Positions 56,187-58,642 of a DNA stretch of 64,000 bases are shown here, in pieces. Origin of the DNA: Dehalococcoidia bacterium (lineage in GTDB: Bacteria; Chloroflexota; Dehalococcoidia; UBA2979). The stretch covers positions 768,001 to 832,000 of the forward strand of contig OZ219872.1 of the NCBI GenBank assembly GCA_964291495.2, read 5' to 3'. The stretch's first letter is position 1. Each line of letters begins with the position of its first letter. The notes below the pieces were generated by a model, which made no database searches, was not told where the DNA came from, and worked only from the letters and a program-made list of their open reading frames with translations. The position numbers and the translations under genes were made by a program.

Positions 56187-56249
56187 CTCTGCCTCCCTCG
56201 CGTCGACGCGATGTCCCGCCGTAACGATACGCCCCGTTACCATGATCCG

Positions 56250-57443
56250 ATGCGCAGCGCGGTCACGCTGATCGGCATCATGGCGGCGGTCTGCCTGCCC
56301 GCGCTCGCTCTGCGCGCGAGCGGCACGCACCTCGGTACGGTCAGCGACACGCTGCTGTTCGGCCTCGGCATCGTAGCGGCGGCGTTCCTGCTGAGCTGGG
56401 CCGCCGAGGCCGCCCAGGTTGATGTCTCGCAGGGCCTCGCGGTCGCCGCGATTGCCCTGATCGCCGTGCTGCCCGAGTACGCCGTCGACCTCGCCTTCGC
56501 CTGGAAGGCGGGGCAGGACCCCGAGTTCGCGCCCTTCGCGGTCGCGAACATGACCGGGGCGAACCGGCTGCTGATCGGCGTCGGCTGGTCGGCGGTCTTC
56601 CTGATCTTCTGGCTGCGCACGCGCGGGCGCGTGCTGCGATTGACCTCCGCGCACTCCCTCGACGTGATCGCTCTCGGCGCCGCGACGGCCTACTCGTTCA
56701 TCCTGCCGTTCAAGGGATCGATCAGCCTCGTCGACACCGTCGTGATGTTCGCGATCTTCGCCGTCTACGTGTACGGCGTCGCCCGCAATGAGGGCGAGGA
56801 GCACGATCTCGTCGGCCCCGCCTACTGGATCGGCCACCTCCCGAAACGGCAGCGACGCACGCTCAACGCCTGCATCTTCGTCTTCGCGGCGGCCACGATC
56901 CTCGCCGCGGCGGAGCCGTTCGCCGAGGGCCTGATCCACACCGGGACAGAGCTCGGCATCGACGAGTTCCTGCTCGTGCAGTGGCTCGCGCCATTCGCGT
57001 CCGAGGCGCCCGAGTTCCTCGTGGCCGGCATCCTCGCCTTCCGGGGCCGCGCGGTGATGGGCATGGCGGCGCTGCTCTCCTCGAAGGTGAACCAGTGGAC
57101 GCTGCTGCTCGGCGGCCTGCCGGTCGCCTTCTCGATCTCTGGCGAGACGCTGGGCGGGCTACCGCTCGACGGGCGCCAGAGCGAGGAGGTGTTCCTCACG
57201 GCCGCGCAGTCGCTGTTCGCGGTCGCCATCCTCGTCAGTCTCAGCCTCAGCCGCTGGGAGGCGGCCGCGCTGATCGGCCTGTTCTCGATCCAGTTCGTGA
57301 TCCCGATCTCCGAGGTGCGGATCGTGATCGCGATCGTCTACCTCGCGCTCTCTGCCGTGCTGCTCGTGCAGCAGCGCCGTGACATCCTCAAGGCGCTGCG
57401 CGAGACGCGCGCCATCCTCAGACGGCCCGCCGAGGGCTTGTGA
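56250..57443 (+). CDS. Ca2+/cation antiporter (CaCA family)
   Basis: AVLPEYAVD, ANMTGANRLL, APFASEAPE, SSKVNQWTLL. Confidence 0.9.
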   Translation: MRSAVTLIGIMAAVCLPALALRASGTHLGTVSDTLLFGLGIVAAAFLLSWAAEAAQVDVSQGLAVAAIALIAVLPEYAVDLAFAWKAGQDPEFAPFAVANMTGANRLLIGVGWSAVFLIFWLRTRGRVLRLTSAHSLDVIALGAATAYSFILPFKGSISLVDTVVMFAIFAVYVYGVARNEGEEHDLVGPAYWIGHLPKRQRRTLNACIFVFAAATILAAAEPFAEGLIHTGTELGIDEFLLVQWLAPFASEAPEFLVAGILAFRGRAVMGMAALLSSKVNQWTLLLGGLPVAFSISGETLGGLPLDGRQSEEVFLTAAQSLFAVAILVSLSLSRWEAAALIGLFSIQFVIPISEVRIVIAIVYLALSAVLLVQQRRDILKALRETRAILRRPAEGL

Positions 57444-57463
57444 ATGCGCGCACGTTCACAATG

Positions 57464-57492
57464 TTGCAAGGGCTTACGCGGCCTTGCATGAT
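57464..57492 (+). promoter_or_regulatory. Sigma70-like promoter TTGCAA-N17-CATGAT
   Basis: Exact 17-nt spacing; preceded by palindrome TTGTGAA-N10-TTCACAA (57438-57461). Confidence 0.55.
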
Positions 57493-57494
57493 GG

Positions 57495-57740
57495 TGTTGT
57501 AGACAGGGACGGAGGAAGGGAGACCCGATGACCGATTGGGTCGGAACTCTCCTCAGAAGCGCCGAGCGCGCGTAAGCCGTAAGGAGCAGACCCTTGGGCA
57601 GAGCAGCTTCGCACTAGGACCGGGTGGTCCCATCCCGAGGCGGAGAGCCCCAGCGCCCCGCCCACGGCTAGAGCCGGCACGGGGACCATCCCGACATCCC
57701 AGGCAAACGACATGAATCGGGCCTCCTGAGGAGGCCCGAT
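57495..57740 (+). ncRNA. Candidate structured ncRNA (~240 nt), family unknown
   Basis: No credible ORF; promoter upstream; 10-bp stem 57622-57631/57682-57691; interrupted 5'/3' complementarity; ends in hairpin. Confidence 0.5.
57716..57740. terminator. Hairpin, probable terminator
   Basis: ATCGGGCCTCCT-G-AGGAGGCCCGAT perfect inverted repeat between convergent units. Confidence 0.7.
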
Positions 57741-57766
57741 GTGCGTCCGGCGCAGGTTCAATCGCG

Positions 57767-58642
57767 CTACGACTGGCGCGCCGGGCGCGGCTCCGAGGCG
57801 GCCTCCGCCTCGACCTCGGCGCTCCGTTCGCGGCCAAGCAGCGCAGCGAGCGGCGAACGGCCCACGCCGATCTCGCGCCGCTCGAAGGCCACGAGGGCCA
57901 GCGCGACGCAGGCGACCGCCGCAGCGAGCAGCAGCGCCTGGTGCTGCCAGAGCGGACCGTCGGTGAGCACGCGCTGCGCGTCCGAGTAGTAGTACGGGCT
58001 GAAGAAGCGCAGCCACGACAGCGAGTCGGCGAGGCCGGCGATGATGTTCAGCACGTAGCTCGCAACCGCCCCGACGATCATCAGCCCTGCCGCCCGGCCG
58101 CGCGTCGGCGTCAGCGTCGCCGCGAGCACCGTCGCGGCGATCACGGACCAGGCGAACGGCAGCAGCACGAACGACGCGATCGCAAGCTCGCCCCCCGTCA
58201 CCTCACCCTTGAGGTCGACCAGCGGCGCGCTCAGCAGGAAGCCGACGCCGGCGATCGCGAGGATCGCGACGGCGGCGATCGCGGCGCCCGCGAGCTTGCC
58301 GAGGAACAGCCCGCGCCGCGAGAGCGGCTGCGAGAGCAGCACCTCGAGCGTCCCCCTGCCTTCCTCGGCCGCCAGCAGCGCGCCGCCGACGATGATCGAG
58401 AAGACCGTCAGCAGAATCGGCGCCCAGGTGAAGAACTCGAGCTGCAGGAACTGGCGGGGGTCCGACACGTCTTCGATCTCGCCGAACCCGAGGTTCTCGA
58501 GCTCGATGCCTTCGAACTGCTCGGCGATGGTGGGGAAGAGCAGCACCAAGATCGCAGCGAGGACGGCGAGGCCGAGCCCCCAGCCGACGATGTGCCAGCG
58601 AAGATCGCGCAGCGTCTTGCGCAGGATCGTCCGGTCAGGCAT
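57767..58642 (-). CDS. ABC-2 type transporter permease
   Basis: AAEEGRGTLEVLLSQPLSR, SPYYY, multiple TMs. Confidence 0.9.
   Translation of the reverse strand: MPDRTILRKTLRDLRWHIVGWGLGLAVLAAILVLLFPTIAEQFEGIELENLGFGEIEDVSDPRQFLQLEFFTWAPILLTVFSIIVGGALLAAEEGRGTLEVLLSQPLSRRGLFLGKLAGAAIAAVAILAIAGVGFLLSAPLVDLKGEVTGGELAIASFVLLPFAWSVIAATVLAATLTPTRGRAAGLMIVGAVASYVLNIIAGLADSLSWLRFFSPYYYSDAQRVLTDGPLWQHQALLLAAAVACVALALVAFERREIGVGRSPLAALLGRERSAEVEAEAASEPRPARQS

Follow-up and report, generated by a model that had tools for sequence, protein, structure and literature searches.

A lineage-restricted structured RNA gene, probably of a new family, in sponge- and marine-associated Dehalococcoidia

What is encoded in the gap between two convergent genes of an uncultured Dehalococcoidia bacterium? 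The gap lies in a stretch of 64,000 nucleotides (nt), hereafter the window (GenBank assembly GCA_964291495.2, contig OZ219872.1, positions 768,001 to 832,000), and separates a Na/Ca-exchanger family gene (56211-57443, + strand) from an ABC-2 permease gene (57767-58642, - strand) that is followed by its ATPase gene. An initial annotation, made from the letters of the window, placed here a candidate standalone structured non-coding RNA with a promoter, an operator and a terminator, and direct reading of the sequence locates every sequence feature that it named. We conclude that the gap very probably holds a real RNA gene of a new family. The gene stands on its own, is present in one copy and encodes a stable, structured non-coding RNA about 250 nt long; the family was found only in a single uncultured genus of Dehalococcoidia (Chloroflexota) associated with sponges and marine habitats. 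The locus shows gene-like conservation, compensatory change in its structure, presence in RNA libraries and a restricted distribution, and the family is of a familiar general kind, the lineage-restricted orphan structured RNA.

Conservation and distribution

Does the element exceed what chance would produce in such a gap? Folding energy alone is mildly unusual and does not discriminate between the strands (z = -2.63 on the + strand, with 1 of 200 shuffles as stable; z = -2.79 on the - strand), and it is conservation rather than folding energy that gives the strong evidence. BLASTN located a single copy of the interval per genome in 13 of the 18 other species of the genus: nine (group A) match at 85-91% identity over the whole interval and four (group B) at 67-69% over its core. 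There was no match in 22 genomes from other genera. The flanks diverge while the interval is conserved.

Conservation peaks in a 25-nt block (57582-57606) that is exact in all 20 distinct family members, and a search with this 25-mer added three more members of the genus, including the most divergent, G006 (group C). Outside the genus, among 401 genomes of the class, the 25-mer at up to three mismatches gave only two matches, both coding-like, and a control pattern gave one; the two (G166 and G235, three mismatches each) share no other similarity with the family and were dropped as chance. A covariance model of the family, R1, matches this locus at 57495-57753 (250.6 bits) and finds one copy each in the window's own genome and in 16 of the 18 other genomes of the genus, at 147-271 bits. 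Two genus members, G005 and G016, give only E ~6, and synteny is no help there, as their best DppB-like matches reach 55-65% identity amid many paralogues. R1 found no copy in 80 genomes of 20 sister genera, where the best 20 first-look candidates per genome were scored and weak relatives may be missed. Across 185,579 species genomes, an exact-pattern scan picked up 16 loci, every one of them in a record titled as a Dehalococcoidia or Chloroflexi metagenome-assembled genome (MAG), and a metagenome scan added four further contigs. Pooled, these searches yield 37 matches that represent 20 distinct sequences.

Gene architecture and genomic setting

The features of the locus, with their strands, are as follows.

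57438-57461, no strand: inverted repeat TTGTGAA-N10-TTCACAA, which begins within the last codons of the exchanger gene and overlaps its stop codon
57464-57469, + strand: -35-like hexamer TTGCAA
57487-57492, + strand: -10-like hexamer CATGAT after a 17-nt spacer, CATCAT in some species
57499-57748, + strand: proposed RNA of about 250 nt, its 5' end predicted 7 nt past the -10 hexamer and its 3' end set where conservation ends
57512-57554, + strand: long hairpin P1, GAGACCCGAU with AUUGGGUC..UCUCC, apical stem at 57522-57542
57528 (ATG) to 57573-57575 (TAA), + strand: small open reading frame (ORF) of 15 codons (MTDWVGTLLRSAERA)
57559-57569, + strand: mini-hairpin GCGC-N3-GCGC, four invariant pairs and a variable loop
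57577-57597, + strand: hairpin P2 from RNAalifold, CCG-(2-nt variable bulge)-AGG, loop AGCRGAC, CCU-UGG
57582-57606, + strand: 25-nt block AGGAGCRGACCCUUGGRCAGAGCAG, made up of the P2 loop, the P2 3' arm and the adjoining single strand
57614-57617, + strand: invariant CUAG in the linker ahead of the three-way junction
57620-57693, + strand: three-way junction domain P3-P5, from folds and covariation
Within that domain, + strand: P3, CCGGGUGGUCCC with GGGGACCAUCCC, register assigned by hand for each group
57622-57631 with 57682-57691, + strand: 10-bp stem (GGGUGGUCCC/GGGACCAUCC), including one G.U pair
57639-57643 with 57658-57662, + strand: P4, GGCGG with CCGCC, register likewise assigned by hand
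57665-57676, + strand: P5, CGGC-UAGA-GCCG, from covariation
57694-57715, + strand: single-stranded tail with conserved CC.GGCA.AC
57716-57726 with 57730-57740, + strand: terminal hairpin P6, perfect, 11 bp in this genome
57741-57748, + strand: 3' tail GUGYGUCC, conserved across groups whose downstream contexts differ

Transcription is predicted to run on the + strand and to begin near 57499, under the gene's own TTGCAA-N17-CATGAT promoter. TTGCAA is identical in all 14 sequences of an alignment (A1) that includes group B, whose upstream flank is otherwise unalignable, and it is also present in G003, G008 and G006; at the -10 position, GCAT.AT is invariant in A1. A consensus scan for sigma-70 promoters and U-tract terminators returned no site at the locus, so the promoter and terminator labels derive from conservation and position, not from a consensus score.

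Where the gene sits differs between groups. In group A (10 species) it follows the Na/Ca-exchanger gene, abutting its stop codon, and is convergent with the ABC-2 gene, with no same-strand gene following it; its neighbours in groups B and C are a divergent gene on the upstream side and, starting about 150 nt further on, a DppB/OppB-like permease gene. The exchanger orthologue of groups B and C lies well away from the RNA gene and has no RNA of this kind (G007:C49, G015:C1:1564216-1565376 and G006:C1:1584979-1586163; loci L101, L102 and L106), and R1 gave no match at E <= 1 on the exchanger-gene loci of six group B, group C or unplaced genomes of the genus and on 14 sister-genus loci. In all, the RNA gene is found in three different neighbourhoods, which points to relocation within the genus of a unit of roughly 290 bp from promoter to tail. 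Since the promoter hexamers are invariant amid unalignable flanks and changed neighbourhoods, the gene appears to move as a unit together with its promoter and 3' hairpin.

Secondary structure and covariation

RNAalifold, separate minimum-free-energy (MFE) folds of eight sequences from the three groups, and inspection by hand agree on the set of structural elements. Consensus and per-species folds are multi-branched, with five separate helical elements including a three-way junction, and the predicted order from 5' to 3' is P1, the GC mini-hairpin, P2, an invariant linker, the P3-P5 junction, P6 and a short conserved tail. P1, P4 and P6 are present in all eight MFE folds and P3 and P5 in those of groups A and B; the group C fold recovers P4 and an extra hairpin, but pairs the P3/P5 region differently.

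The homologues collected from the genus carry compensatory changes in several helices. Standard pairs occupy 90.1% of 936 hand-modelled pair cells in the 20 distinct sequences, compared with 33.9-53.2% when the 3' partners are slid by one to three columns; both-sided changes occur at six pairs (37 cells), a count matched by none of 500 shuffles, and the covariation score reaches 0.135 where the slid controls stay at or below 0.083, all in an alignment that was fitted to a related structure and whose 20 distinct sequences are kin from one genus. P6 is paired throughout in 20/20 sequences with a variable loop, and its pair 249:259 is fully compensatory (CG in 10, UA in 10). Pair 183:194 of P5 is GC in 10, AU in 9 and GU in 1, pair 132:206 of P3 is GC in 10, UG in 9 and UA in 1, and pair 32:49 of P1 is UA in 9 and CG in 5. 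The apical stem of P1 differs in sequence between groups A, B and C, the three versions being mutually compensated, and P1 is recovered in every independent MFE fold; its purine-rich 5' arm, GAGGAAGGGAG, pairs with UCUCCUC, and the small ORF has its Shine-Dalgarno (SD)-like GGAG and its start codon within P1. Groups B and C carry an extra 6-bp hairpin on P4 that is likewise compensated (GGUGGC/GCCACC, GGCGGC/GCCGCC and GCGGCC/GGCCGC). P2 is near-invariant and paired in 96.7% of cells, and the GC mini-hairpin has invariant pairs, hence no covariation. G.U pairs are frequent (85:101 in 19/20 sequences, 20:59 in 14/20), and their abundance fits the + strand only. Sequence invariance is mostly confined to predicted loops and linkers, and it is the stems that covary.

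Do the two ends pair? Partial pairing between them was part of the initial annotation, and the 3' GUGYGUCC can be paired with a 5' GGAC(R) at 57508-57511 in 77% of cells, with one covarying pair (17:273; AU in 8, GC in 6, other in 6); this arrangement is not separable from an alternative with the internal GCGCGC (57566-57571), which is paired in 99% of cells but is invariant and repetitive. The tail may thus pair with GGAC(R), closing the molecule, or with GCGCGC. The proposed terminator stands in part: the terminal hairpin is there and is perfect, but the scan found no U tract behind it, and eight conserved bases (GUGYGUCC) follow instead. P6 may therefore be a terminator or a structural hairpin.

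Transcripts

Is the stretch present in RNA? Of 24 public sequencing runs that contain part of it, 15 are recorded as RNA, mostly sponge or marine metatranscriptomes. We placed on the locus contigs from four RNA runs belonging to four studies, which jointly span 57499-57692: X1 covers 57499-57663 with 100% identity, X2 covers about 57501-57692 and continues for another 42 nt in the form that the tail takes in a relative, X3 covers 57506-57680 and X5 covers 57514-57685. In X2, X3 and X5, which are small runs of 35-133 Mb, no contig falls on the flanking genes and none covers 57693-57748, neither of which is evidence of absence. The stretch occurs in RNA libraries independently of its neighbour genes. 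All four contigs begin between 57499 and 57514, within 15 nt of the predicted start of the RNA, a weak hint in favour of that start.

Comparison with known RNA families

Is this a known RNA that has diverged? With gathering thresholds, Rfam 15 recognises only a transfer RNA (867-938) in the whole window, and at E <= 10 its only match in 57300-57900 is CRISPR-DR36 (E = 8.3), which we take as chance. No family thus matches at the locus, and a new class, one of three identities offered by the initial annotation, is the probable one. The annotation had also remarked that hallmarks of transfer-messenger RNA (tmRNA) and RNase P RNA are missing, in agreement with the lack of any model match here and with the presence of both genes elsewhere in the genome (tmRNA at C8:16699-17053, 123.1 bits; RNase P RNA at C8:72531-72927, 258.1 bits).

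A second suggested identity, a divergent signal recognition particle (SRP) RNA, is refuted: a bona fide SRP RNA gene lies elsewhere in the genome (G000:C6:126301-126400, 68.8 bits), one such RNA per genome being the rule, and the bacterial small SRP RNA model (RF00169) has no match at the locus. The loose resemblance to SRP helix 8 is real as a local likeness, with CC-GUAA-GG-AGCAG at 57577-57591 beside GCC-GGAA-GGC-AGCAG in the genome's own SRP RNA, but it is shallow. Helix 8 of SRP RNA is marked by a GNAR tetraloop and by conserved bases of a symmetric loop, AGCA on the 3' side, that a further helix closes. AGCAG reads AGCGG in 10/20 distinct sequences, the tetraloop at the locus varies (GUAA, GUUA, GGGA, GGAA, UGAA), and the strands flanking the motif are not complementary, so that the symmetric loop of SRP RNA cannot be closed.

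Orphan structured RNAs that came to light through comparative genomics offer another likeness. The table of motifs in PMC2864571 lists genus- or phylum-level orphan RNA candidates, Chloroflexi-1 (RF01698) among them. Like Chloroflexi-1, Dictyoglomi-1 and raiA, the RNA described here is intergenic and covarying, has its own promoter and hairpin, and is narrow in range; unlike them, it has expression support, a three-way junction and an invariant 25-nt block, and it has no similarity to any such motif in Rfam 15 at E <= 10. Full-text searches of the literature turned up no work on small or structured RNAs in sponge-associated Dehalococcoidia.

Proposed function and alternatives

What could such an RNA do? 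Because its stems covary while the 25-nt block and CUAG are invariant, the pattern is that of a structured RNA presenting a fixed surface to a partner. We propose that the covarying helices would form a scaffold displaying this surface (the P2 loop and linker, 57582-57606, together with CUAG), that a trans-acting partner, most probably a protein, would recognise it, and that the RNA would act either as the RNA part of a ribonucleoprotein (RNP) or as a decoy. Taken as a whole, the explanation we favour, a new lineage-restricted and trans-acting structured RNA with the invariant block as its recognition surface, has in our estimate an even chance of being right, and its more specific part, a scaffold recognised by a protein in an RNP or as a decoy, is put forward tentatively, at somewhat less than that. 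The exact ends of the RNA, its action in trans and the kind of partner all belong to this conditional part.

Several observations weigh against the proposal. The metatranscriptome contigs give neither strand, ends nor abundance, and those of X1 also fall on the flanking genes, so DNA carry-over is possible in that run. Many of the non-paired cells in P1, P3 and P4 come from register shifts between groups that were settled by eye, and P2 and the GC mini-hairpin never vary among the 20 sequences, which leaves these two helices unproven. No RNA-binding protein gene is among the conserved neighbours. Searches of the genome, which is 93.7% complete, found neither Hfq nor CsrA/RsmA (PF02599); this speaks against the two commonest systems of small RNA (sRNA) and protein, and the locus accordingly does not qualify as a CsrB/RsmY-type sponge. 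A housekeeping RNP RNA would not usually be restricted to one genus. Finally, the SD-start-stop module of the small ORF, intact in 20/20 sequences, leaves a coding or dual role possible.

Might the RNA then be a message? The 15-codon ORF noted from 57528 is confirmed, and under this alternative it would be translated, with P1 gating access to the SD sequence and start codon and the 3' domain stabilising or regulating the message; the function would be the peptide or the act of translating it. Dual-function sRNAs of this kind include SgrS/SgrT, RNAIII/hld and SR1/SR1P, which the RNA resembles in being structured and in carrying a short, SD-preceded ORF that is kept open in all members, although it has no sequence relation to them and its peptide is unconserved. 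The frame has 14-15 codons, begins with ATG in 5, GTG in 14 and TTG in 1, and ends with TAA or TGA, always at one alignment column; every sequence has GGAG(G) 5-6 nt ahead of the start, and where the start is displaced by a codon the motif shifts along with it. Insertions and deletions, many in other parts, are absent from the frame, and the two Ala codons near the C-terminus vary synonymously at the third position. Set against this, the first eight residues are unconserved (TDWVGTLL, QSIRMFLG, IAIRPLPG), and the variable codons follow not codon position but the positions that are unpaired in the RNA (the P1 loop, the P1 internal loop and the GC-hairpin loop). Group A shows about eight replacement and three silent differences, counted by eye; a 15-codon frame would stay open by chance with a probability of about 0.7 at this G+C, by our own estimate; and conservation of the RNA is highest beyond the stop codon. 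With variable codons at unpaired positions and replacements exceeding silent changes, selection at the level of the RNA explains the ORF pattern without translation, and we regard a dual-function RNA or small mRNA as unlikely.

A second mini-frame is visible further along, running from UUG at 57594 to UAG at 57615-57617: AAGGAG is followed after 7 nt by seven codons, the frame is open in 20/20 sequences, and its stop lies in the invariant CUAG. As its bases are in the invariant block, it is indistinguishable from constraint at the RNA level.

Could the invariant surface pair with RNA instead of binding a protein? An invariant, unpaired stretch flanked by structured modules and a strong 3' hairpin is the usual layout of a trans-encoded sRNA, and the independent gene, with its invariant, predicted-unpaired stretch (CAGAGCAG and neighbours) amid structured modules and ahead of P6, fits that layout; the stretch would serve as a seed for one or more mRNAs. 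Yet typical seed-type sRNAs are much smaller and have far simpler folds, Hfq was not found, and both strands of the genome hold no second site with at least 22/25 complementarity, in a search made with the full 25-mer. A base-pairing sRNA is in our view quite improbable.

The third identity offered by the initial annotation was a 6S/Ms1-like RNA. 6S RNA binds the RNA polymerase holoenzyme and templates product RNAs; it is typically about 185 nt long and forms a single extended irregular helix with a large central bubble between closing and terminal stems, and Ms1 is a mycobacterial RNA. An RNA of this type is not supported here, for the 6S model RF00013 has no match in the genome (E <= 1) or at 57300-57900 (E <= 10), and the fold is multi-branched rather than a rod with a central bubble. 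The silence of the model is itself uninformative: RF00013 matches only 5 of 14 control genomes and misses nine, including Corynebacterium glutamicum. It matches in none of 18 genus members and in one of 61 relatives. One can nevertheless imagine a functional analogue with a non-canonical fold, an abundant transcript that would adjust transcription globally by binding RNA polymerase. Among the near-universal stable RNAs the search for a gene came up empty for 6S alone, SRP RNA, RNase P RNA and tmRNA being accounted for, so the RNA would fill the one vacant slot among the widespread stable RNAs of this genome; and it shares with 6S and Ms1 an independent gene, a sigma-70-type promoter, possible pairing of the ends and an apparent abundance in RNA libraries, having been assembled from very small metatranscriptomes. 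Counting against the analogy, besides the lack of any Rfam match and a three-way junction in place of a long rod, are a length of about 250 nt, the restriction to one genus and the failure to find the RNA in 80 genomes of the sister genera, where a core regulator would be expected. Such an analogue is in our estimate quite improbable, and so is a bolder form of it, in which the RNA would be the lineage's replacement for 6S, binding RNA polymerase or another component of the core machinery through an unrelated multi-branched architecture, and would have arisen within a single sponge-symbiont genus as Ms1 did in mycobacteria.

The sole canonical 6S match among the 61 relatives (G031:C227:21772-21948, L049, 70.7 bits) comes from a genome that is about 9% contaminated, and it may not belong to a member of the Dehalococcoidia.

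Last, the element could be a cis-regulatory leader (riboswitch or attenuator) of the downstream Dpp/Opp-type permease operon, with groups B and C keeping the ancestral arrangement and group A an orphaned copy. This reading would account for the same-strand permease about 150 nt after the hairpin in 7/7 group B and C loci examined and for a three-way junction and hairpin that resemble an aptamer with its expression platform, but it is very improbable, given that group A, with a convergent gene following in all 10 species, conserves every element, that conservation ends right after GUCC, that the group B spacer to the permease has its own conserved TACAAT-like box, and that no riboswitch family matched.

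Sponge-dwelling Dehalococcoidia are uncultured and their RNA biology is essentially unmapped, and the lineage appears to be without Hfq, CsrA and a recognisable 6S RNA (the 6S model being weak for divergent lineages). The locus is a clean case, combining a conserved promoter, compensatory changes, an invariant block and transcript evidence from several independent metatranscriptome studies, and the standalone structured RNA with its own promoter and terminal hairpin that the initial annotation proposed is supported. The locus could serve as the seed of a new RNA family model and help to annotate these MAGs better, and an RNA of about 250 nt is a tractable in vitro target for the study of an RNA-protein partnership.

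Flanking elements

Does the proposed operator belong to the gene? The inverted repeat exists, centred about 50 nt upstream of the predicted RNA start, and it is AT-rich (7+7) within a genome of roughly 68% G+C. It is unique in the genome at up to two mismatches. Among 120 loci it is confined to those of 10 group A species, with invariant arms and a variable spacer, and it is absent at all group B, group C and sister-genus loci; it is thus not part of the conserved RNA gene or of the family. The repeat would be either a group-A-specific operator or a weak terminator of the exchanger gene.

Two further features were seen around the gene in group B. About 70 nt upstream of the DppB/OppB-like permease gene lies the conserved box CATCGCGCC...GGGCATACAATGCC (L012:1790-1830, aligned A5 positions), likely the promoter of an operon that is headed by the permease and not by a binding-protein gene. 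The divergent gene on the upstream side (L012:3-1127, L015:3-1115 and L024:1-1248, all on the - strand) encodes a probable secreted protein with an NGGFEDG-type domain and a very long tract of Thr-Ala, Pro-Thr or Glu-Thr-Ala repeats, the length of which depends on the species.

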